Origin: Polyangia bacterium
GTDB lineage: Bacteria > Myxococcota_A > Polyangia > Fen-1088
DNA: 30,148 nucleotides
Direction of reading: 5' to 3'
NCBI GenBank assembly: GCA_035544435.1
Contig: DATKFB010000113.1
Coordinates: forward strand, 1-30,148
Notes under the pieces: generated by a model
Database searches by the model: none
What the model saw: the letters and a program-made list of their open reading frames with translations, nothing else
What the model was told of the DNA's origin: nothing
In this document: in pieces, positions 1 to 15,607 of the stretch
How the letters are laid out: the number at the start of each line of letters is the position of its first letter
How positions within the stretch are numbered: position 1 is the first letter of the stretch
Made by a program: the position numbers and the translations under genes

Positions 1-1575
1 CACGTGCATCCCATGCTCGATCCGACGTTCAACCCCGGGTTCAACGTCGCCGTCACCAACGTCCACGAGGCCGGCGCGTCGAACGGCAACGGCAAGCTCG
101 ACGTCGGCGAGAAGCTCGCGCTCACGCTCAACCTCGCGGACGACAGCGGCGGCGCGATCCCGACGGCGAGCGTCCCGTCGCTCAGCGTCGTCGTCACGGG
201 GCCGACGACGAACCGCAACCTCCTCTTGAGCGCGACGATCCCGGCGGCCGTGCTCGCGGGCGCGCCGCCGTGGAACGTCGACGTGCCCGACGTCGTCAAC
301 CTCGAGCCGCTCGGCGCCTCGACGGCGACGACGGGCGATGTCTTCACGACGGCACGCACGCCCGTGTGGAACGTCACGGGCGCCGTCCCCACGGTCTTCG
401 TGCGCACTGCGACGGGCGTCGCGACGACGCTCCTCGCGGCGGCGCCCGCGCTGCAGAACTTCGTCGACGTCGCGTCGTCGACAGGGTTCCTGCGCAACGA
501 CTACATCGTCGTCGACGACGGTGTCGCGGGCGCCGCGGAGTACCTGCGCGTCCAGCTGGTCGAGGGCAACCGCCTGTGGTTCGCGGCCGCGGCTACGGCG
601 GGCTACCAGCCAGGCTTGCGCGTCGCGCACGCCGCCGCGGCGGCGGTCACGAAGGTGATCCTCGCGGCGAAGGTGCTCAACACGGACTACACGCTCGCGG
701 CGGCGACAGGCACGATCTCGGAGGTCACCGAGTTCGGCGCGGGCGCCGCCGTGCTCGCGACCTACACGACCGACTTCGTCGTGCCGGCCGTCTACGGTCC
801 GCCGCTCAACGACTCGCCCGATCTCGGCCAGGACGTCGGCAAGTGGAAGGGTCTGCCGCTCGTGCCCGGCACGTACACCGTCGGGGTCTGGGGCTCGCGC
901 ACGCTCAGCCTCGCGCTCAACGGCGAGATGAACAGCTACCGCGCGACGTCGCCGCCCGCGACGGTCGACTTCCTCGTGGGGACGGCCACGACGATCGCGC
1001 CCGCCGCGATCGTCTCCTCGGGCGCGACCTGCCAGTCGTGCCACGTCGACGTCTACGCACACGGCGGCAGCCGGCGCGGCCTCGAGACGTGCCTGCTCTG
1101 CCACGGCGGCGCGGGCATGGAGGACCGCCCGCGCTACGTTGCCGCGGCCGCGCCCGCGACGCCGCGCCTGTCGGCGGAGTTCCGCTCGATGCTGCACAAG
1201 ATCCACCGCGGCAGCGACCTGCCCGACGCGGCCACCTACGGCGTCGTCGGCTTCGGCGCTGGCGCGTATCCCAACAACTTCGGCGTCGTGTCGTTCTCCG
1301 ACGTCGAGTTCCCCGCGATGCCCGCGGGCGTCAAGAGCTGCCGCGCCTGCCACGGCGCGAGCGACGCCTGGCAGTCGCCCGCGGATCGGAGCCACCCGAC
1401 GGCGGCCACGGTCCCTGCGCGCTCCTGGACGATGGCCTGCGGCAGCTGTCACGACTCGGTCGCCGAGAGCGCGCACATCGACATCATGACGAGCAGCGCC
1501 GGCGAGGAGTCGTGCGCCGTGTGTCACGGCCCGGGTACCGATCTTTCGACCGAGCTCGCGCACCGGGTCAGGTGA
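1..1575 (+). CDS. OmcA/MtrC-family multiheme c-type cytochrome, C-terminal part (5' end outside window)
   Basis: Frame is open from base 1. Five CxxCH motifs: CQSCH 1030, CLLCH 1090, CRACH 1339, CGSCH 1438, CAVCH 1513. Family-typical spacing and motifs HGGSRR..CLLCH and MLHKIHRG. Stop TGA 1573-1575. Confidence 0.88.
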
Positions 1576-1592: not shown

Positions 1593-4334
1593 ATGGCCGT
1601 CGACGGGCGCCCGGACTCCTCGCACGATCTGCTGCGCCAAGAGCGACAGCCGCTCGACGTCTTCTTCTCGCCCCAGATCGTGGCCGTCGTGGGCGCCACC
1701 GAGGTGGCAGGCAGCGTCGGGAGGACGATCCTCTGGAACCTCATCGGCAGCCCCTTCGGTGGCACGGTGTTCCCCGTCAATCCCAAGCGCGCCAGCGTCC
1801 TCGGCATCAAGGCCTACCCGACGCTGGCCGACGTCCCGGCCAAGATCGACCTCGCGGTGATCGTCACGCCCGCGACGGCGGTGCCCGGGATCGTCGGTCA
1901 GTGCGCCGATCTGGGCATCCCGGCCGCCGTCATCATATCGGCGGGCTTCCGCGAGGTCGGCGCCGCGGGGGCCGACCTCGAGCGGCGCGCGCTCGCCGAG
2001 GCGCGCCGGGGGCACATGAGGCTCATCGGCCCCAACTGCCTCGGCGTCATGAGCCCGACGAGCGGCCTCAACGCCACCTTCGCGGCCGGCATGGCCCGTC
2101 CCGGCGACGTGGCCTTCCTGAGCCAGAGCGGCGCGCTGCTCACGGCGATCCTCGACTGGAGCCTGAAGGTGCAGCTCGGCTTCTCGGCGTTCGTGTCGCT
2201 GGGGACGATGCTCGACGTAAGCTGGGGCGATCTCATCGATCACTTCGGCAACGATCCGCGCACGCGCTCGATCGTTCTTTACATGGAGTCGATCGGCGAC
2301 GACGCGCGCGGGTTCCTCTCGGCGGCGCGCGAGGTCGCGCTCTCGAAGCCGATCATCGTCATCAAGGCGGGACGGACGGCGGCCGCGGCGCGCGCGGCGG
2401 CCTCGCACACGGGCGCGCTCACGGGCTCCGACGAGGTCCTCGACGCCGCCTTCCGCCGCGTGGGCATCCTGCGCGTGACCCAGATCGGCGACGTCTTCGA
2501 CATGGCCGAGGTGCTCGGCAAGCAGCCACGGCCGCGCGGCCCGCGCCTGTGCGTCGTCACGAACGCGGGCGGTCCCGGCGTCCTCGCGACGGACGCGCTT
2601 ATCACCCACGGCGGCGAGCTCGCGCCGCTGTCGGAGGCGACGCGCGCCAAGCTCGACGCGCTCCTGCCCGCGGCCTGGAGCCACGGCAACCCCATCGACG
2701 TGCTCGGGGACGCCGATCCGGCGCGCTACGCGGGCGCGCTCGAGATCGCGGCCGGCGACCCCGACAACGACGGCCTGCTCGTCGTGCTGACGCCGCAGGA
2801 CATGACCGATCCGACGCTGACCGCGCAGGCGCTCACGCGCTACGCGAAGATCGAAGGCAAGCCGGTGCTCGCGAGCTGGATGGGCGGCGCGCAGGTCGCG
2901 GCGGGCGTCGACGTGCTCAACCGCGCCAACATCCCGACGTTCGAGTTCCCCGACTCGGCGGCGCGCGCGTTCTGCGACATGTGGCGCTCCTCGTACGCGC
3001 TGCGGGCGCTCTACGAGACGCCCACGGCCGGCCAGGAAGGGAAGACGGACGTCACGGTTGCCTCCGCCGTCATCGAGGAGGCGCGCGCCGCCGGCCGCAC
3101 GCTCCTCGACGAGGTCGAGTCGAAGCGCCTCCTCGCGGCGTACGGCATCCCGACGACCGACACGCGCGCCGCGGCGACGGCCGCCGAGGCGCGCGCCGCC
3201 GCCACAGCCATCGGCTTCCCGGTGGCCGTCAAGCTGTACTCGCGGACGCTCACGCACAAGACCGACGTCGGCGGCGTCAAGCTGGGCGTCGCGGACGAAG
3301 GCGCCGTCGAGCGCGCCTTCGACGCCATCCGCGCCGCCGTGACCGAGCGCGCCGGCGCACAGCACTTCCTCGGCGTCACCGTGCAGCCGATGGCGCGCGG
3401 AGGCGCGGGCGCCTTCGAATTGATCCTGGGCGCCTCGCTCGACGCGCAGTTCGGGCCCGTGCTGCTCTTCGGCGCGGGCGGTCAGCTCGTCGAGATCTTC
3501 CGCGATCGCGCCCTCGCGCTGCCGCCGCTCAACCGGACGCTCGCGCGCCGCTTGATGGAGCAGACGAAGATCCACCGCGCGCTCGCGGGCGTGCGCGGTC
3601 AGAAGCCCGTCCCGCTCGGCGCGCTCGAGGAGCTGCTCGTCCGCTTCTCCGATCTCGTCGTCGAGCAGCCGTGGATCAAGGAGCTCGACATCAACCCGCT
3701 GCTCGCCTCGCCCGACGGCCTGCTCGCCCTCGACGCGCGCGTCGTCCTGCACGACGCCTCGATGCGCCGCGAGGACCTGCCCCGCGCCGCCATTCGCCCC
3801 TACCCCACCCAGTACGTCGGCGCCCACCTCCTCGCCGACGGCACGAGCCTCGTCGTGCGCCCGATTCGTCCCGAGGACGAGGGCCTGCTCGTGGCCTTCC
3901 ATCGCTCCCTCGGGGAGAGCAGCGTGCGCCAGCGCTACCTCGCGCCCCTGCGCCTCGACCATCGCACGACGCACGAGCGCCTCATTCGCGTGTGCTTCTC
4001 CGACTACGACCGCGACATCGCGCTCGTCGTCGAGCACCGGCCGGCAGGCGGGACGGCGGAGATCGTGGCCGTCGGGCGTCTCGGCCGCCGCGCGCGGCAC
4101 GACGACGCCGAGTTCGCGCTCCTCGTGCGGGACGACTGGCAAGGCCGCGGCCTCGGTACCGAGGTCCTGCGACGCATCGTCGACGTCGCACGCCGCGAGG
4201 GGATGCGCCGCGTGATCGCCACGATGCTTCCCGACAACGGCGCCATGATCCACGTCGCCACCAAGCTGGGCTTCACCGTCCGCTGCGAGCCGGGCGCCGC
4301 GGAGGCCGCCGCAGAGATCGACCTCGGCGGCTGA
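1593..4334 (+). CDS. Bifunctional acetate--CoA ligase (ADP-forming) family / GNAT acetyltransferase (Pat/PatZ-type protein lysine acetyltransferase)
   Basis: ATG 1593 after GAGGAGG. CoA-binding domain ([25 protein letters not shown]), SHTG, ATP-grasp ([19 protein letters not shown]) and C-terminal GNAT motif A (WQGRGLG). The track start at 270 is a spurious extension. Confidence 0.93.
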
Positions 4335-5804: not shown

Positions 5805-6671
5805 ATGGCAATAGCGCGAATGCGGTTGGCCCCAGCCTTTATCCTCGCGAGCGCCTTGGCCTCGTGTGGCGGTCCGAATGCGAATCCCGCGACCGGTGAC
5901 GCCGGCACGAACCCACAGACCGGCAATGGCGGCACCGGGGGCAGCGCGACGACCGGCGCGGCGGGTTCGTCGATGACCGGCACCGCCGGGGCCTTCGGCG
6001 GCACGGGGACGGGCGGCACGACGGGCGCCGCCGGTACCGGCGCGGCGGGCACGGGCGCCGCCGGCACGGGCGCGGCAGGCATGGGCGCCGCCGGCGCCGC
6101 CGCCGGGAGCACCGGCCAGGCCGGCACGACGGGCGCCGCGGGCAGCGCCGGCGTGGGTGGTGATCCCACGACCTGCGCGGGCTGTCAGATCAGCATTCTC
6201 TACACGTGCCAAGACCCGAACACGGACCAGGCCACCTTCATCGTGGAAATCAAGAACGTCGGCCCGACGATCCTGCTCCTCAAGCCGTTCGTCCTTCGCT
6301 ACTGGTACACCATCGATCCCACCAAGGAGCAGGAGCTCGACTGCGACACGGCTCAGAAGTTCACGTGCGATTACATCGTCGCGAACAACAACCAGGTGAT
6401 GGGGCACCCGAACCCGACCTTCGTGCCCGTCGTGCCGCCGCGTGCGATGGCGAACGAGTACGTCGAGATCAAGATCATCCAGGGCGCGATCGACGTGGGC
6501 CGTTCGAGCGGGCCCATCCAGCTCCGGCTGCACAACAAGGACTTTACGCCCAGGCCGCAAACGAACGATTACTCGGCCGACTGCGCCCAGCCCGGGCAAC
6601 AGCACGTCGACTCGGGCAAGATCACTGCCTACTTCAACGGCAAGCTGATCGCCGGAACCGAGCCGCAGTAG
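5805..6671 (+). CDS. Lipoprotein with Gly/Thr/Ala linker and C-terminal cellulose-binding (CBM3-like) domain
   Basis: Lipobox ALASC. CBM3-like motifs IKNVG..LRYWYT..QELDCD and YVEI..IQLRLH..NDYS..ITAYFNGKLIAGTEP. Alternative start ATG 5820. Confidence 0.8.
   Translation: MAIARMRLAPAFILASALASCGGPNANPATGDAGTNPQTGNGGTGGSATTGAAGSSMTGTAGAFGGTGTGGTTGAAGTGAAGTGAAGTGAAGMGAAGAAAGSTGQAGTTGAAGSAGVGGDPTTCAGCQISILYTCQDPNTDQATFIVEIKNVGPTILLLKPFVLRYWYTIDPTKEQELDCDTAQKFTCDYIVANNNQVMGHPNPTFVPVVPPRAMANEYVEIKIIQGAIDVGRSSGPIQLRLHNKDFTPRPQTNDYSADCAQPGQQHVDSGKITAYFNGKLIAGTEPQ
6018..6092 (+). repeat. In-frame 15-nt tandem repeat, 5 imperfect units encoding (G/T)TGAA
   Basis: acgacgggcgccgcc / ggtaccggcgcggcg / ggcacgggcgccgcc / ggcacgggcgcggca / ggcatgggcgccgcc. 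Confidence 0.85.
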
Positions 6672-6753
6672 CCCGCGGCGGTCGGTGCTCCGCTCGACGC
6701 AGCGGAGCTCGAGGCCGACGCGATCGCGACACGGCTGTCCGACCCAGTCGCCC

Positions 6754-7456
6754 GAGCAGCGCGGCGGCAACTTCTACTTCGCCGAGAAGCCCGCGGCGGT
6801 GCGGGAGGTGTTCACGCAGGAGCTGGCGTTGTTCGTCGCGCCCATCGCCTACGACCTCAAGCTGACGTTCGACGAGCGTGCCCGCCTACTCCGTGAAGAA
6901 CGTCTACGGCACCAATCTGTGGAAGGCGACCGCGACGGGCGGCGCCGTGAGCATCCCGAGCGTATTCCTGGTGTCGCGCACGAGCTCGATGCCGGACACG
7001 ACGGGGGGGCGGCGGGGCGGCGGCTCCGCCAACATGGCCGAGCTCGGCCCAGACGCGACGCAGATCCCCGCCGCGGGGAGGTGCGACGTCGCGCGTCTGC
7101 ACCTCGAGTACCGCCTGCCGGGCTCGACGACGATTGAGACGCAGGACGCGACGATCTCGTACGACGTGGCGAACGTCGGCCTCGTGACGACGGGCGACGA
7201 CGCCGCCGCCTACTACTCGAGCCACGACGTCGAGAAGAACACGATCATCCTCGGTCTCTACGTCGCGCTGCGCGACGCGACGCCGCTCGCGCAGACCAAC
7301 CCCGCCGGCGCGCTCGCGGCGCTCGCCGCCTTCCAGCCGAAGTTCAAGGCCCGCATCGCGGGGTGGGCCGATGCGGACCTGATCGACGACGTCGCGATCG
7401 TTCAGCAGGACGTCGACGTCCTTCACGCGCACGCCCCCAACGCCATGGCGCCGTAG
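6754..7456 (+). pseudogene. 5'-truncated, frameshifted remnant resembling the C-terminal half of a myxobacterial vWA-domain protein
   Basis: GGNFYFAEKPAAVREVFTQELALFVAPIAYDLKLTF (frame of 6685) continues as PAYSVKNVYG...SRTS..GGRRGGGS in the frame of 6878. No convincing start and no vWA MIDAS region upstream. Confidence 0.6.
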
Positions 7457-7537
7457 CAGACGCGGTGCGCCCGCCACGGAGGGCCGCGCGGAGGGCTCGA
7501 TGGCGCGCGGCGCCGGAACGCGTCGACCCCTCCTTGA

Positions 7538-7567
7538 TTGACAGCCATGCGAAGGGCGACCTAGCGT
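7538..7567 (+). promoter_or_regulatory. Sigma70-like promoter, probably leaderless
   Basis: TTGACA 7538-7543, 18-nt spacer, TAGCGT 7562-7567, ATG 7 nt later with no Shine-Dalgarno. Confidence 0.55.
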
Positions 7568-7574
7568 CGTTGCG

Positions 7575-8789
7575 ATGGCCCCCAGCCCGAGCTTTCTGTC
7601 GTACCTATTCGGTGTCGTGATCGTGGGTGCCGGTTGTTCGACCGCTGCCTCTCGCCCGCCGGTGAATCCAATGGACGGCGCCGTGGATCCCGTCGGCGGC
7701 GCGGGGACGAGCGGAGCAGGTACCGCGGGCGGCGCGGTGACGGGGGGAGCCACGGGCACCGGCGGCGCCGGCACCGCCGGCGGCGGCAGCGGGGGCAGCG
7801 CGACGCCCGGGCCAGATGCTGCGGCCGAAATGTCCGGCAAGGATGCCGCGGCCGGCGAGGCCGGGAACGACGGCCCTGCGCCCCCTGCCCCGTTGGGACC
7901 GGCGGGCGGGGCGTGCCCGGGCGGGCCGTACGGCAATCCGCTGCCGGCGAATTTGAACGCGACGCTCGTCAAGAGCTTTCCGGGCGAGCTCGAAGGCCCG
8001 GCGTGGGTCGCCGCGCAGAAGGCGCTCTACTTCGCGCAGTCGGGCGGCGGCTCGAACAACGGTCTCATCAACAAGTACACGCCGGCCGATGGCAAGTTCA
8101 CCGTGTTCGCGAGCAACGTCGGCGTGGCCGGCCTGGCCGTCGATCCGGATGGAATGCTCGTGGCGGCGTCCTACGATTCCCGGTCCCTGACTCGGTTCGA
8201 TCCCGCGACCGGTAAGCGGACCGACGTTGCCGGCGGCTCGCGATACAACGGCCAGCCTTTCGACGAGGTGAACGACGTCGTCGTGCGCGCCGACGGCAAC
8301 ATGTACTTCTCCGACCCGAACTACGCGACGCCGCCTGGCACTCAGCCCCAGGCGTTCTATCGTTTGTCGCCGCCCCCCGAATCGAAGGTGTCGCTGGTGT
8401 TCATGGCAAAGAACGCCAACGGCATCGCCCTGTCGCCCGACGGGGCCTGGCTGTTCGTGGCCACCACCGACAACGGCGGGACGCCACTGCGGCGCATCCC
8501 GGTCGCCGCCGATGGCAGCGTGAGCGGGCAGGGAACCACCTGGAAAGAAGCCTCGAGCGACGGAATGGGCGTCGACTGCGCCGGCAACCTGTACCTCAGC
8601 GTCGCCACCGCCACGAACGTCATCGAAGTGATCTCCTCCTCGGACCAACCGCTGGGAAACATCGTGGGTCTGGGCGGCGGCTACGTCACCAACAGCGCGT
8701 TCGGCGACGACGATCGAAAGACGCTCTACATCACCACCAGCGAGGGGCTGTACAAGATTCAGATGAACGTCCCCGGATTCCCGAACTGA
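7575..8789 (+). CDS. Lipoprotein, SMP-30/gluconolactonase/LRE family beta-propeller
   Basis: Lipobox VGAGC, Gly-rich linker, then EGPAW, VNDVVVRADGNMYFSDP, NGIALSPDG, DGMGVDCAGNLY. Confidence 0.9.
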   Translation: MAPSPSFLSYLFGVVIVGAGCSTAASRPPVNPMDGAVDPVGGAGTSGAGTAGGAVTGGATGTGGAGTAGGGSGGSATPGPDAAAEMSGKDAAAGEAGNDGPAPPAPLGPAGGACPGGPYGNPLPANLNATLVKSFPGELEGPAWVAAQKALYFAQSGGGSNNGLINKYTPADGKFTVFASNVGVAGLAVDPDGMLVAASYDSRSLTRFDPATGKRTDVAGGSRYNGQPFDEVNDVVVRADGNMYFSDPNYATPPGTQPQAFYRLSPPPESKVSLVFMAKNANGIALSPDGAWLFVATTDNGGTPLRRIPVAADGSVSGQGTTWKEASSDGMGVDCAGNLYLSVATATNVIEVISSSDQPLGNIVGLGGGYVTNSAFGDDDRKTLYITTSEGLYKIQMNVPGFPN

Positions 8790-11072: not shown

Positions 11073-12509
11073 TCAGACCAGCAGGTCGGGAAGGCCCGTG
11101 GTGGCCTGCGAAGCCCCCATTCCCCAGGGGCTCGGGGGCCTTCCCAATGCCGTCATCAACGTGTACGCGACCTTGGACTGGTTGTCGCCGTTGGGTGCCC
11201 CGGTGATTCCCGGGGGGCCACTGGCCAGCCGCAGGTGCTGGTCGGTCTTCAGCAGGCCGCCTGCCTTGCCCGCGACCAAGGTCGGGTAGTCGTTGCCGCT
11301 GTGGGTCTGCGACTCGCTCGTGCACGAGGTGGAGTAGACCACGGAGTTGTCGAGCAGGTTCCCGGCCCCGTCGGCGCAATTCATCATGGCCGTCAACGTG
11401 TTGTTGAAATTGGTCATGGCGTACGTCACGCCGGTCGCGAAACCCTGGGTTGCGTAGGCGAGCCCTTTGGGACTCTTGCGGTGCCCGTAGTCCTCGTGGA
11501 ACGTCACCGGATCCAACCCGGCGTCGGAGTAGTTGCCGTGGCAGGCCGAACACGTGAACATGAATGAGAAGACCCGCGTTATGTCCGTCGCCAGCGCGAA
11601 GACGATCAGGTCGGACATCGCCTTGCTGCGCAACGCCGTGATCGAGCCAACGGCCCCCATGTTGGGATAGGCCACCGCCGGATCGACGAGCTTCGCGCCC
11701 GACGTCGTCGGGGTCGTGGCCTTCATCGTCGACAGGATGGCGATCTGATTTTCGATCTGGCGCACCCCATCCAGGTGCTGGTCGAGCCGGAGCTGGTCCG
11801 CCTTGCCCAGGCGCAGGCGCAGCGACGCCGCGTCATCTAGGACGGCATCGAGAACCCGCTTGCGATGCGCGAGCTCGGGGTCGGGCCCCGCGGGCACCGT
11901 CGTGCCTCCGCCCGTCGTCGTGCCTCCCTTGTTGTACATGACCAGCGTCTTGAAGAGGTTCGCCGGGTCGTACTCCGGAGGATTCGACGCGTTCGGGCCT
12001 CTGAACGAGACCCTCAGATCCAGCGCCCCCGCCCCCGACGTGTTCGAGATCCCGACGTGAATTCCATTGGGTATGGCAGGCATGGACCCCGCGTTGAGGA
12101 TCGGCGCCAAAATTTGATCGATGGAAGGCAGCTGCACGTCCGCCCCACCGGCGTTCGCGCCCGTCAGCGCGGCGGCGGGGCGCCCTTTGTGCGCCGGGTC
12201 GGGTGGGATCTTGTTGGTCAGCCCCGTAATGACCTGCAGATACGACTTCACGGGCAGCAGGGGCATCAGCACCGAGCTCAGCGCCCACGCGCTGCCCACG
12301 CCCGTCGCGGCAGGTACCCACTCAGGCGGGTTGATGCCGTTGCCGAAAAACCAGGTTCCATAGCGCAGCGGCAGCGCCGCTCCGCTCGCGTACGCCGTGC
12401 CGTTTCCGTTCAGCATGCCGGCCATGCGCGGCAGGGGGATCGTGACACCTATGCCCCCGGCAATAACACCGCGGAGGACCGTTCGGCGTGGAAGAACAGC
12501 GCGCGACAT
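11073..12509 (-). CDS. DUF1552 domain-containing protein with Tat-like leader
   Basis: ATG 12509 after GAGGAG. RRTVLRG leader, LPLRYGTWFFGNG, PSIDQ, DQLRLDQHLDGVRQIE, DGAGNLLDNSVV, YPTLVAG. The track start at 12998 is an extension. Confidence 0.88.
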   Translation of the reverse strand: MSRAVLPRRTVLRGVIAGGIGVTIPLPRMAGMLNGNGTAYASGAALPLRYGTWFFGNGINPPEWVPAATGVGSAWALSSVLMPLLPVKSYLQVITGLTNKIPPDPAHKGRPAAALTGANAGGADVQLPSIDQILAPILNAGSMPAIPNGIHVGISNTSGAGALDLRVSFRGPNASNPPEYDPANLFKTLVMYNKGGTTTGGGTTVPAGPDPELAHRKRVLDAVLDDAASLRLRLGKADQLRLDQHLDGVRQIENQIAILSTMKATTPTTSGAKLVDPAVAYPNMGAVGSITALRSKAMSDLIVFALATDITRVFSFMFTCSACHGNYSDAGLDPVTFHEDYGHRKSPKGLAYATQGFATGVTYAMTNFNNTLTAMMNCADGAGNLLDNSVVYSTSCTSESQTHSGNDYPTLVAGKAGGLLKTDQHLRLASGPPGITGAPNGDNQSKVAYTLMTALGRPPSPWGMGASQATTGLPDLLV

Positions 12510-12523
12510 TGGCTCTCTCCTCG

Positions 12524-14254
12524 TTACTTGGTGGCAATTTCGACGAAGCGATACGCGTCGTTCGACGCGATGTCGAGCAGCAACTGGTCCGCCCGATGGC
12601 CGCTCGTCTCGAACTGCTTGCTCAAGCTCGCGACCACGGGCGCGTCGACCGGGAGCGGCTCCCGCCCCTGCGCTTGCTCGTACAGCTTGCCCACGAAGCA
12701 AGCCGCCGCCTGCGGGTGGTTTCGCAACACCTTCGCCAGCGACGCTTCGTCCTGGAACGGCACGCCGTCGAGCACCCCCGTCGCGTCGATCGGCAGGTTG
12801 TTGGCTGTCGTCCGGTACGCCCCCACGCTGTCGAAGTTCTCCAACCCAAGCCCCACCGGATCCATCAGCGCGTGACAAGCCGCGCACGCCGCGCTCTGCC
12901 GGTGCGCCTCGAGCGTCGCCTTCACCGACGAGCCCGCCGGCAACATGTCGAGCACGTTCGTGTTCACGTTCCCCGGCGGCGGCGGCACGACCTTGCACAA
13001 AAGCTGCTGCGCCACGAACCGCCCACGCAGCGTCGGCGACGACCGCTGCGGCAGACCATTCGACGCCAAGATCGCCCCAGCCCCCAAGAGCCCCACCCGC
13101 GGCGAGCCGGCCGGCAGCGTCGCCTTGCGGAACCCATCCGTCGCCGCCTGGGGAAGACCATAGATCTTCGCCAGCTCGTTGTTCACGAAGACCGTCGGCG
13201 AGTCGTACAGCGACAGGTAGTCACCCGCGAAGGCCACGTCGTCCACGCGCATGAGCAGCTCTTGCTGCATGGCGACCGGCAGCGTCTTGGTCCAGTTCGG
13301 GTAGAACGCCGGGTCCTTGAACGTCGTCGTCAAAGGCGTCCCCGAGCTCGGGTCCATGCCATAAAGATCGTTCGCGAAGTTCGCGATCGACTGATGCGCC
13401 TTCGGCGACGCCAGCATCGTCTTCGCCTGGGCCAGGACACCCGCCGACGTCGCCAGGCTGCCGCTCGCCGCCGCGGTCATCAGCGCATCGTCGGGGACCG
13501 AAACCCAAAGCAGCGACGCCAGCCGCGACGCCATCTCGAAGCTCGTGTACTTGTTGCGGCCGCCGTCCGCCGGACTCGGCGCCCCAAGCTCCACGCGGTA
13601 CAGGAACTCCGGCGACTGCAAGATCGCCGACACCGCGTACTTGAGCCCGACCAGGATGCTGCCGCCCGGCTCCTGGGCGATGTCCGTCGCGACGCTCACG
13701 TAGCGCGTAATGTCCGCGGCCGTCAGCGTTCGCCGGAACGCGCGCCGACCAAAGGCGCCCAGGACCTGGCCGAGCGGACACGCCGTATCGGTCGCGCTCG
13801 CGGGGACGCACGACAGAACCGTCGCGGCCTGCGCCGCGCTCGAGAACGCGTACTGCGCCGCGCCGTTGATGGCCGTCTCATATTGCGACACGCCCATCGG
13901 CGAGACCGCCACCACCGACGCCGACACCGAGCGAAATCCGTCGATCTGCTGATCCGGCTCGAGCTGCGACGGAACGGGGGCGTTGCTGCCCAGTAGATCG
14001 TGAATGCTATTCGTGAACTCCGCGATCGTCAGCTTGCGCAAGGACGGCACTGGCTGCGTCAGCGATCCGACCGTCCCCGTGCTCCCGCCGCCCGTCGCCG
14101 GCCCGCCCGTCCCCGCAGCTCCGCTCCCGGGCCCGCCCGGCGACGCGCCCGGCGAGCTCACGGTTCCCACGCAACCCGCGGCCACCAGCGCTGTGGCCAT
14201 GAGCGATGAGACGGCGACGCCAACCCAGGCAGCCTTCGTGGAGATCCTTGTCAA
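12524..14254 (-). CDS. DUF1592/DUF1588/DUF1585/DUF1587/DUF1595-type lipoprotein with one CxxCH
   Basis: TTG start after GGAGGTGA. Lipobox VAAGC. LRKLTIAEFTNSIHDL, ILQSPEFLYRVE, EMASRLASLLW, SSPTLRGRFV, CAACHALMDPVGLGLENFD. Typical partner of DUF1552. Confidence 0.9.
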   Translation of the reverse strand: MTRISTKAAWVGVAVSSLMATALVAAGCVGTVSSPGASPGGPGSGAAGTGGPATGGGSTGTVGSLTQPVPSLRKLTIAEFTNSIHDLLGSNAPVPSQLEPDQQIDGFRSVSASVVAVSPMGVSQYETAINGAAQYAFSSAAQAATVLSCVPASATDTACPLGQVLGAFGRRAFRRTLTAADITRYVSVATDIAQEPGGSILVGLKYAVSAILQSPEFLYRVELGAPSPADGGRNKYTSFEMASRLASLLWVSVPDDALMTAAASGSLATSAGVLAQAKTMLASPKAHQSIANFANDLYGMDPSSGTPLTTTFKDPAFYPNWTKTLPVAMQQELLMRVDDVAFAGDYLSLYDSPTVFVNNELAKIYGLPQAATDGFRKATLPAGSPRVGLLGAGAILASNGLPQRSSPTLRGRFVAQQLLCKVVPPPPGNVNTNVLDMLPAGSSVKATLEAHRQSAACAACHALMDPVGLGLENFDSVGAYRTTANNLPIDATGVLDGVPFQDEASLAKVLRNHPQAAACFVGKLYEQAQGREPLPVDAPVVASLSKQFETSGHRADQLLLDIASNDAYRFVEIATK

Positions 14255-14599
14255 CGCTCACCTCCGATTGTCACCGATGCCTCGAGCGCCCACTCGGCCT
14301 CGCAGCCGCGGATAGAACCCGCTTAGATCAGGTAGAGCGCGGCCCTCACAAAACAGCTCATCCCAGGAAGAAGCACGGTCAGGAGCCACCCTAAGGCCCG
14401 CCCGACACGATGGCCCATCGCGTTAGCTGTCAAGACTCTTCGGGGCGATGAGTCCAGATTGACTGTCTTGCCGCGTCAATTCGTTGATGCGCCACTCCGG
14501 TCAGGGACCAACCCCGGAAGTCGAATCATCTGCGGACGCTCAGCAAATTGGCGCGCCGCCAGGACGGCCGCGCACTCCGCGATGCGGTAACCTGCGCCG

Positions 14600-15607
14600 A
14601 TGCACGGCAGCACGGGCGCAGTCGTAATTTTGCTCGTGGCCGGATGCTCTGGGGGCATCATGGCGCCGGCAGGAAGTCCGGGTGGGCTCGCCGATGGGAC
14701 GGAGGTGATGACGTCACTCGAGATCCCCGCCGGGTCGACGATGACGATCCCCGCGGGCGCCACGATCGTCGCCGCGCCAGACGTCGTCATCACGGTGCGC
14801 GGCGTCCTGTCGATCGCCAGCGCACCCGTGCACGCGCGCATCGCGACCGCGGCGCCGCACCCCGACCAGGCTCACGCTTGGGCCGGCATCGTCGTCGAGA
14901 GCGGGGGCCGCCTCGACGCCGACGGTCTCGACCTCGCAGGCGCCACGACTGCGCTGACCGTCAACGCGGGCAGCCTGGGCGCGCGTTACGATGACGGCAC
15001 GATCACGGACGCGAGCGTGCCATTCCAGATCGCGGCGGGCGCGCGCCTCGACACGAAGCACGCTGCCGTCGTGAACGCGGGCGCCGCGAGCGGCATCGCC
15101 GGCGAGATCCACGCCTCCTACCTCGACTACGAGACCTCGGCCGACGTCGTGGGCGGCCTCATCACGACCGACCCGAAAGCCGTCTTCGACGCCACCGACT
15201 CGACTTTCCACGGCACGGCGAACGCCGGGAACGACTATCTCATCTCGTACGCGTCGAGCCTCTTTCACGTCGCCTACTCGACGATCACGGACGCGCACTG
15301 CGCCTTCCATTTCAACGACGTCGCGCGCTTCGAGATCGATCACGTCACGGCGGGTGCGTCGTCGCCGGCCGCTCCGGGCGACGGGGTCGTCTACGGCGCG
15401 ATGCTCTACGGCTCGGGCGCGGGGCCGAACGTCATCAGCAACTCGAGCTTCATGGGCAGCGCATTCGACCTCGATCAGCAGAACGACAACGGTCCGCTCA
15501 CGATCTCGAACACGTTCGCCAAGGGCCAGGTCTCTCTCCTGCCGACCTCGACCTGGCTCCCCGCGGACGTCGCGAAAATGCCCATCGCCGACGCCAAGCC
15601 GCGCTGA
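14600..15607 (+). CDS. Hypothetical lipoprotein, probable right-handed beta-helix-like fold
   Basis: Lipobox LVAGC. Beta-helix-like start (TMTIPAGATIV..VITVRGVLSI..WAGIVVESGG) and Asn/Ser-rich repeats. Confidence 0.72.
   Translation: MHGSTGAVVILLVAGCSGGIMAPAGSPGGLADGTEVMTSLEIPAGSTMTIPAGATIVAAPDVVITVRGVLSIASAPVHARIATAAPHPDQAHAWAGIVVESGGRLDADGLDLAGATTALTVNAGSLGARYDDGTITDASVPFQIAAGARLDTKHAAVVNAGAASGIAGEIHASYLDYETSADVVGGLITTDPKAVFDATDSTFHGTANAGNDYLISYASSLFHVAYSTITDAHCAFHFNDVARFEIDHVTAGASSPAAPGDGVVYGAMLYGSGAGPNVISNSSFMGSAFDLDQQNDNGPLTISNTFAKGQVSLLPTSTWLPADVAKMPIADAKPR

Follow-up and report, generated by a model that had tools for sequence, protein, structure and literature searches.

Cytochromes of the OmcA/MtrC type are the model for the hand-over of electrons to minerals and electrodes, and how they recognise solid or polymeric partners is still debated. 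The stretch of DNA analysed here, referred to as the window, comprises the first 30,148 bases of contig C113 (DATKFB010000113.1) from the metagenome-assembled genome (MAG) of a Polyangia bacterium (GCA_035544435.1). It begins inside the gene of such a cytochrome and raises the question of what is inserted into the second beta domain of this protein, domain III, and what the insertion does there. The gene occupies positions 1-1575 of the forward strand in frame +1; according to the list of open reading frames it is open from base 1, has its stop codon at 1573-1575 and runs off the contig at its 5' end. An earlier note, made from the sequence alone, had described positions 265-830 as a nested two-domain insertion of phage-structural character in an MtrC/OmcA-type cytochrome, and the motifs quoted in it are present in frame +1 in the order given. 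Our structural models point very strongly to a cassette of about 165 amino acids (aa), a predicted small beta-sandwich whose own loop holds a beta-barrel, the pair being nested in domain III.

Domain III contains an insertion of approximately 150-165 residues between two of its core strands, because the compact relatives, domain I of the same family, the alignment to TIGR03507 and the solved structures are all without the middle segment. In alignment A1, window aa 78-256 amount to 179 residues, as opposed to 17 and 29 in the compact relatives P0032 and P0033, which are more distant members of the OmcA/MtrC family (30-32% identical) and can be aligned over the haem domain as well as the domain III flanks. 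Domain I, an internal repeat of domain III that serves as an internal control, is compact at the equivalent place. In the profile TIGR03507, the match of the full-length homologue P0010 ends at profile position 372 and the match of the window starts at position 440 (aa 293), so that about 68 profile positions stand against about 227 residues. The structures of MtrC, OmcA, UndA and MtrF align over 120-138 residues spread across model residues 4-340, i.e. they skip the middle. The extra segment, previously put at about 180 aa, thus holds up, with alignment A1 giving about 150-160 extra residues.

For the structure of this region, AlphaFold2 models were calculated for aa 1-340 with 24 homologues (predicted local distance difference test, pLDDT, 88.7; predicted template modelling score, pTM, 0.86) and for the insert only, aa 78-262, with 55 homologues (pLDDT 94.3, pTM 0.87); the pTM values suggest that the domains are fixed relative to each other. 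An exhaustive structural comparison of the models with 48,161 PDB representatives yielded three match sets with nested ranges. Foldseek searches with the 340-aa three-layer model gave weak results (best E 9.6e-4, low template modelling, TM, scores) because the domains are nested, and the per-domain ranges of the exhaustive aligner were required. All parts lie on the forward strand. The first half of the domain III core (28-279, aa 10-93) comprises the strands before the insertion, which can be aligned to the compact relatives and the structural matches. It is followed by the first half of the outer module (280-414, aa 94-138), a part of the predicted small beta-sandwich delimited by the structure-search ranges, and by the inner module (415-663, aa 139-221), a predicted beta-barrel defined by structure matches and alignment columns, in which Glu180 and His210 are invariant. 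The second half of the outer module (664-774, aa 222-258), again placed by the structure-search ranges, returns into the core strand, and the second half of the core (775-1011, aa 259-337) is assigned from alignment A1. The nested arrangement proposed in the earlier note is borne out by the search ranges, which run from aa 94/96 to 257/258 for the outer and from 135/139 to 220/222 for the inner module, and its boundaries (outer halves at 295-410 and 670-777, inner module at 424-657) agree with ours within about five residues; only its outer end at nucleotide 830 lies too far, reaching about 55 nucleotides into the core strand and the following loop. It had also named two outcomes as speaking against its proposal, namely colinearity with known domain III sequences and a single fold lacking phage or adhesin likeness, neither of which was found.

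The three match sets differ in their nearest structures. The core gave matches spanning model residues 9-340 with about 100-138 aligned residues, including macroglobulin, FN3 and immunoglobulin (Ig)-type sandwiches (Z 8-9) and, among the cytochromes, domain I of MtrC (9eov, Z 8.3), UndA, OmcA and MtrC (7.9 each) and domain III of MtrF (7.8). Within the second half of the core, a loop of about 25 aa (aa 263-288, nucleotides 787-864; P-L-N-D-S-P-D-L ... G-K-W-x-G) has pLDDT values below 50 at aa 271-278. This loop, with near-invariant Ser, Gly and Trp residues, is found in both beta domains of the family (columns ~183-200 of alignment A1 in domain I) and is absent from the compact relatives; it may contact a haem or a partner. 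The outer module, with ranges of 94/96 to 257/258 in the 340-aa model and 17/19 to 181/182 in the insert-only model and only 64-82 residues aligned in them, best matches the contractile-injection baseplate protein of Streptomyces (9gtp) with Z 10.0, a root-mean-square deviation (rmsd) of 1.5, 80 aligned residues and 25% identity. Further matches are a baseplate-tail protein of siphophage R4C (Z 8.7), a DT57C neck protein (8.6), portal-tail proteins of LME-1 and Carin-1, and connector domains of CBA120 tailspike 4 (about 7.4), with 8gtc_G and 8hqo_R also among the matches; a Z of 7-8 alone is at the level of a common fold. For the inner module, 70-83 residues are aligned, and the top match is the tail tube of phage Mystique (9n71) with Z 12.2, rmsd 1.3 and 76 aligned residues of about 83, followed by the JBD30 baseplate (8rk3_U, Z 10.9), the Chi tail tip (8vjh_B, 10.5) and a phage-type K1 capsule lyase (7w1c_A, 10.4). 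Capsid proteins are also represented, with VP1 at Z 8.4 and the P22 coat I-domain at Z 7.5-7.6, whereas barrels of the ATP-synthase N-terminal and EF-Tu domain-2 types reach Z values of about 6-6.8. The inner barrel, as modelled, belongs to a very common class, the closest versions of which are found, by a clear margin, in phage structural proteins. The best matches of both modules are thus phage tail, baseplate, neck and tailspike proteins, in line with the phage likeness supposed in the earlier note.

Searches with the complete nested unit lead to the same proteins. When the insert-only model was searched against the PDB with Foldseek, phage proteins ranked first (probabilities 0.95-1.00, E 2e-4 to 2.4e-2), among them the tail tubes of Mystique, FCWL1 and T1, the tailspikes of AP22, LKA1, K64-1 and P560, and baseplate or tip proteins of JBD30, phi812 and Chi. 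The predicted viral structures of BFVD gave 25 matches at E <= 1e-3; the top match, a 197-aa protein of an uncultured Caudovirales phage, covers the whole nested unit (214 columns, E 1.7e-7) and is followed by a 'major tail protein', tail fibres and receptor-binding proteins. In the AFDB clusters, a member of the same family comes first (TM 0.90) and is followed by proteins some 200 aa in length that match cassette residues 9-182 or 15-182 and include one named 'Phage protein'. In the ESM Atlas, 105-124 residues align to clusters with Phage_tube_2, Phage_capsid_3 and SU10_adaptor, 123-124 of them to a viral 209-aa cluster (TM 0.52/0.47); other matches are bacterial secreted pectate-lyase-fold proteins and a multicopper-oxidase cluster of Nitrospirota. 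Modest TM scores (0.45-0.52) were obtained for the unit as a whole, which is expected if the inter-domain angles differ. Taken over all structure searches, related cassettes occur in tailspike depolymerases, GH110 enzymes, secreted pectate-lyase-fold proteins and the multicopper oxidase cluster. We read this as evidence that the nested pair exists as a mobile unit in phages and secreted proteins, and not as proof of a phage donor.

At the sequence level, a phmmer search with aa 78-256 against 1.84 billion representatives (clusters at 50% identity) returned 88 proteins at E <= 1e-3, nearly all of which belong to the same cytochrome family or are fragments of it. An exception is P0113 (E 1.3e-4), a metagenomic protein of 321 aa of presumed phage origin, the C-terminal part of which matches PHROG tail and tail-fibre families and the C1q domain. 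Its residues 13-96 align to the inner barrel with an hhalign probability of 89% (E 2e-6, 34% identity, 82 columns), and the invariant Glu and His are common to both. The NCBIfam model tail_tube_6XGR matches aa 213-257 faintly (E 0.022), far below the cut-off, and is a lead only. Two further candidates were set aside. P0076, a metagenomic protein of 4,550 aa, has 23 weak stretches of similarity to cassette residues 21-74, which were judged to be a beta-sandwich or compositional resemblance and suggest either a distant likeness between the outer sandwich and DUF11 repeats or a shared composition; P0109, with three fn3 repeats, was dismissed on the same grounds. P0076 itself is a giant surface protein of planctomycete type with 24 DUF11 repeats and dockerin, FG-GAP and SdrD_B domains.

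The distribution of the cassette was obtained from a genome scan covering one genome per prokaryotic species (alignment A2). It yielded 53 related loci from Planctomycetota and Myxococcota, with the cassette in all of them; apart from two truncated at contig ends, each spans at least aa 1-330. The family is common in uncultured Planctomycetota and Myxococcota of soils, lakes and groundwater. Six loci from Polyangia/Myxococcales MAGs are closest (67-75% identical), and the remainder, mainly from Planctomycetota, are 39-57% identical. In the phylogenetic tree, the cassette-bearing proteins form one clade with 100% support in the Shimodaira-Hasegawa-like approximate likelihood ratio test (SH-aLRT) against the compact outgroup, and the window sequence lies inside the Polyangia clade, likewise with 100%, in keeping with the myxobacterial host assumed beforehand. 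The tree is rooted only by the two long-branched compact relatives and the support of its backbone is weak. Genomes labelled as Myxococcota occupy at least two separate positions among the planctomycete sequences of the tree (loci L006-L011 and, as a second group, L027, L046 and L037). With the reservation that the backbone is weak and that some MAGs may be mislabelled, this hints that the gene passed between the two phyla more than once. Transfer of the cassette cytochrome between the phyla is likely, in a direction that the weak backbone leaves unsupported. The mean pairwise identity is 50% in the inner module, 46% in the outer module, 43% in the domain III core and 52% in haem domain IV, and the ratio of non-synonymous to synonymous substitution rates (dN/dS) is 0.23-0.26 in all four regions among seven Polyangia orthologues. 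Because its conservation is near that of the haem domain and its dN/dS lies at 0.23-0.26, the cassette is an integral and constrained part of the protein and not a fast-evolving tip.

The window holds the 3' part of the gene (1-1575, forward strand, 524 codons and a stop), which begins with the contig at window base 1; the assembly consists of 664 contigs with 4.0 Mb and is estimated to be 80.6% complete. A PF22113 search of the same genome gave two matches only, the window part and the 3' end of contig C462. The frame on C462 (locus L061, 2005-3537, 511 aa) runs off the end of that contig and, aligned to three complete orthologues, stops seven residues before the window starts, so that the upstream gene part asked for previously has been recovered from the same MAG. 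It follows that the complete gene product, of about 1,042 aa, is a decahaem lipoprotein interrupted by an assembly gap, and the contig break is not a biological truncation. About seven codons are lost at the break (window 1-3 / L061 3537-3539), which falls within a Gly-rich and GC-rich linker between haem domain II and domain III. Along the N-terminal 511 aa, a lipobox leader is followed by three short repeats containing Cys, then by a beta domain and finally by a pentahaem domain that has five CXXCH motifs. The leader, read by eye, is hydrophobic and ends with L-A-A-C, and the homologues P0025 and P0027 likewise have lipoboxes. The three tandem repeats between lipobox and domain I (L061 ~2090-2350, aa ~30-115) are about 30 aa long, with two Cys each and a core resembling D-G-T-S-V-T-V; similar Cys repeats are present in both cytochromes of locus L007 (8423-11581 and 11642-14722), whereas the planctomycete homologues are without them. 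In the myxobacterial proteins, they may form a disulfide-stabilised stalk.

PF22113, which represents domains II and IV of MtrC and MtrF, matches aa 338-521 of the window part with E 1.1e-22 and the N-terminal part with E 8.1e-17. The former match is pentahaem domain IV (1012-1563, forward strand), with CXXCH motifs at nucleotides 1030-1044, 1090-1104, 1339-1353, 1438-1452 and 1513-1527. The two contigs together contain five plus five CXXCH motifs, those of the window lying in aa 344-509, and all 10 cysteines of the 524-aa part are inside its five motifs, with none in aa 1-343. With TIGR03507 (whole-protein cut-off 209.3 bits), the full-length homologue P0010 (47% identical) scores 238.9 and the window fragment, being half a protein, 95.8. 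No Pfam family matched aa 1-337, and a sequence search of the PDB found MtrF as the sole match, via the haem motifs. The homology search gave 33 proteins, most of which come from MAGs of Planctomycetota, are up to 917 aa long and cover the query from end to end. The protein thus has the four-domain plan of OmcA/MtrC cytochromes, with beta domain I, pentahaem domain II, beta domain III and pentahaem domain IV in a cell-surface lipoprotein with ten haems; the earlier assignment to this type is supported by PF22113, the motif count, the TIGR03507 score of P0010 and the structural Z values of 7.8-8.3.

Upstream of the decahaem gene on C462 lie a 359-aa cytochrome with 13 CXXCH motifs (L061 902-1981) and, preceding it, the end of a protein of about 425 aa without Pfam match (L061 3-905). 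Both have orthologues in L007, where the Pfam-less protein (6005-7285, 426 aa, 64% identical) belongs to unannotated clusters of Myxococcota and Thermodesulfobacteriota and the 13-haem cytochrome follows at 7282-8400. The Pfam-less protein is probably an outer-membrane beta-barrel, as its nearest named clusters are barrel and porin families by language-model features (scores 0.91-0.92, lead level only). The order of putative barrel, 13-haem cytochrome and decahaem cytochrome is kept in all six of the closest (Polyangia) loci and occurs in divergent orientation in two more, and the immediate upstream neighbour in most planctomycete loci is a multihaem gene that is distantly related. MtrB/PioB (PF11854) had no match in the same genome, where absence is unproven at 80.6% completeness. 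The gene set looks like a porin-cytochrome conduit other than MtrAB; the upstream search for mtrAB-type genes that the earlier note had suggested thus led to a gene set of porin-cytochrome type, though not to mtrAB itself. In L007, from a related Myxococcales MAG, the cassette-bearing gene is directly succeeded by that of a second and different OmcA/MtrC-like multihaem lipoprotein of 1,026 aa (11642-14722). By translation, the forward-strand frame that comes next in the window and stops at 4334 lacks CXXCH motifs.

How the cassette came to be in domain III has to be weighed against the possibility that it is not an acquisition. In the explanation that we favour, a single acquisition of the complete nested unit, for which the 100% support of the insert-bearing clade against the compact outgroup speaks, would have preceded the spread of the family across Planctomycetota and Myxococcota. 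Because the MAG has 664 contigs and the gene falls on two of them, an artefact such as a chimeric contig or a misassigned frame could be suspected. It is refuted by the recurrence of this colinear architecture in 53 independent genomes, several of which carry it on contigs 0.1-8 Mb long, and among 88 protein clusters, as well as by the open frame and the confident fold (pLDDT 94.3). A long domain III could also be ancestral, with the compact forms (Shewanella-type proteins, P0032 and P0033) having lost the cassette. The two long-branched compact relatives being the only root, the direction of the change rests on parsimony, but domain I of the same proteins is compact, all solved structures of OmcA, MtrC, MtrF and UndA align to the core only, and the cassette is free-standing in phage proteins of about 200 aa, which makes an ancestral long form very improbable. 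A bolder version of a single gain starts from a phage structural gene, whose ready-made nested decoration cassette, an accessory of tail tubes or capsids, would have been transferred into the output half, where it would either let the protein self-associate into arrays or dock it directly to particulate acceptors. We regard this as speculative and rather unlikely; if true, nature would have its own equivalent of the engineered MtrC-adhesin fusions, and phage structural domains would have been recruited into respiratory machinery.

With regard to function, removal of MtrC domains III and IV in S. oneidensis lowers the reduction of OmcA, flavin mononucleotide (FMN) and Fe(III) citrate (PMC12304082), and the cassette is therefore placed in the half that meets the substrates. 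Under the explanation that we favour, the cassette would be a rigid projection on this electron-output half (domains III and IV) and would act as a binding platform that keeps the output haems against an acceptor or donor of electrons outside the cell, either polymeric or solid, for instance a mineral, humic or particulate organic matter or a polysaccharide matrix. The exposure on the surface of the output half, the recurrence of similar cassettes in tailspike depolymerases and secreted glycan-active enzymes, and the proposal that Ig-like tail decorations of phages bind surface carbohydrates (PMC8718954) are consistent with such docking. Several observations weigh against it. No ligand site could be identified in the cassette; no Pfam or PHROG model matches it, the sole PHROG lead being phrog_14306 (E 0.19); Z values of 10-12 on domains of about 80 residues mean a shared fold and probable homology, not a shared function; the equivalent phage domains mainly provide subunit-subunit contacts or folding stability, not receptor binding (YSD1 'domain2', PMC8718954; P22 I-domain, title of PDB 2m5s); and conservation that is even over both phyla agrees with an unchanging protein partner no less well than with a surface in the environment. 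The docking of a solid or polymeric acceptor is put forward tentatively, whereas the package as a whole, comprising the cytochrome architecture, the origin of the cassette and its docking function, is held with moderate confidence. The coupling of adhesion or polymer binding to electron transfer that the earlier note had supposed is plausible, as one of three options for the function.

It is possible, although we think it rather doubtful, that the cassette makes a protein-protein contact instead, by docking a partner cytochrome, as MtrC docks OmcA, or by linking the protein to itself in ordered surface arrays, which would echo the inter-subunit clamp role in phage tail tubes and capsids. In the YSD1 tail tube, the largest interface is formed by 'domain2', which wraps around the adjacent subunit (PMC8718954). 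The match to the P22 I-domain (Z 7.5-7.6), the uniform purifying selection with a conservation equal to that of the haem domain, the second OmcA/MtrC-like gene directly after the cassette gene in L007 and the need for MtrC domains III and IV in OmcA reduction in Shewanella (PMC12304082) point in the same direction. However, the genome of the window, at 80.6% completeness, shows just two PF22113 matches, both of them halves of one gene, and no partner paralogue was seen. A cassette without any ligand, serving as an aid to folding or stability, as a spacer or as a shield which protects the haems or the surface of domain III or projects the output domain through a surface layer, appears unlikely. 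The P22 I-domain is an accessory domain with multiple roles (title of PDB 2m5s), and the invariant residues of the cassette (Glu180, His210, Gly and Pro positions) look like fold-determining positions that the phage homologues have too. In addition, the disulfide that serves the Shewanella proteins as a redox switch (PMC4486940) is missing from domain III of the family, and this domain is therefore organised differently. An add-on of 165 aa that is kept at a dN/dS of about 0.25 in two phyla and in every member found suggests more than neutral decoration, with which a stabilising role is still compatible.

In the favoured explanation, the half of a surface cytochrome that faces the substrate would have received a rigid two-domain module by a natural graft and, compared with Shewanella, lost the flavin-gating disulfide. 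If the cassette binds surfaces or partners, it would offer a testable handle on the specificity of extracellular electron transfer and would supply the engineering of cytochrome-material interfaces with an insertion site and a scaffold taken from nature. With the findings, phage-type accessory domains are also known from a setting other than virions, injection systems and glycan-degrading enzymes.

Among the phage systems, the accessory domains of tail tubes (Mystique, 9n71; Chi/YSD1, 6xgr; T1, 9l0f; FCWL1, 9jlf) are likewise small beta-barrels which are inserted in a host beta domain and project from it, and the inner module matches them with Z 11.5-12.2; the nested unit aligns over 97-122 residues to the tail proteins of YSD1 and FCWL1. 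The host domain in the window, however, is a cytochrome beta domain without tube-forming elements, and the identity is just 13-16%. The I-domain of P22-type coat proteins (2m5s) and the phage VP1 capsid protein (9in6, residues 62-151) have the same class of barrel topology (Z 7.5-8.4, 21% identity), and the P22 I-domain is also a spliced accessory, but in a host of HK97 fold and as a single domain instead of a nested pair, and its roles in capsid assembly are without an obvious counterpart in a cytochrome. The outer sandwich matches 9gtp and the connectors of phage necks, baseplates and tailspikes (8gtc_G, 8hqo_R, CBA120 TSP4 7rfv/7rej) with Z values from 10.0 down to about 7; there, the domain is continuous, whereas in the cytochrome it is split by the inner barrel.

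Compared with the Shewanella proteins MtrC, OmcA and MtrF (decahaem) and UndA (undecahaem) (TIGR03507; 4lmh, 8qbq/9eov, 3pmq, 3ucp), the window protein is likewise a lipoprotein with two PF22113 domains, each after a beta domain, and ten CXXCH motifs. The cores of the beta domains superpose (Z 7.8-8.3), and both are the surface terminal part of a trans-outer-membrane conduit. They differ in the nested cassette of about 165 aa in domain III, which the Shewanella proteins lack, in the additional loop, conserved and about 25 aa long, that both beta domains of the window family have, and in their hosts, which are Myxococcota and Planctomycetota for the cassette family. A conserved CX8-15C disulfide in domain III acts as a flavin/oxygen redox switch in the Shewanella clades (PMC4486940) and is missing from the window protein, which has no Cys in aa 1-343. 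An insertion that replaces the disulfide loop of MtrC was considered and is probably not the case, as TIGR03507 position 440 corresponds to window aa 293, 3' of the cassette, in an alignment that does not resolve single residues. In contrast to the MtrCAB conduit, no MtrB-family porin was found, and a Pfam-less putative barrel and a 13-haem cytochrome are encoded upstream instead.

In the literature searched, outside of which most subscription journals lay, neither a domain III insertion nor a phage-like module in a multihaem cytochrome is described, and only surveys counting MtrC-like genes in Planctomycetota and Myxococcota were found; a survey of Mtr distribution in mBio mentions neither phylum. 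The nearest concept is man-made, namely MtrC engineered with attachment modules for the selective binding of cells to materials (PMC12915252), which also places a binding module on a surface decahaem cytochrome, as opposed to a natural cassette in which binding would be a proposed property. Metagenome surveys that call 'MtrC' by hidden Markov models alone lump the cassette proteins together with the Shewanella type, and the differences described above argue for their separation. We rate these proteins as a distinct subfamily of the OmcA/MtrC cytochromes, characterised by a nested cassette of phage type, a domain III without the disulfide and conduit partners other than those of the Mtr system.

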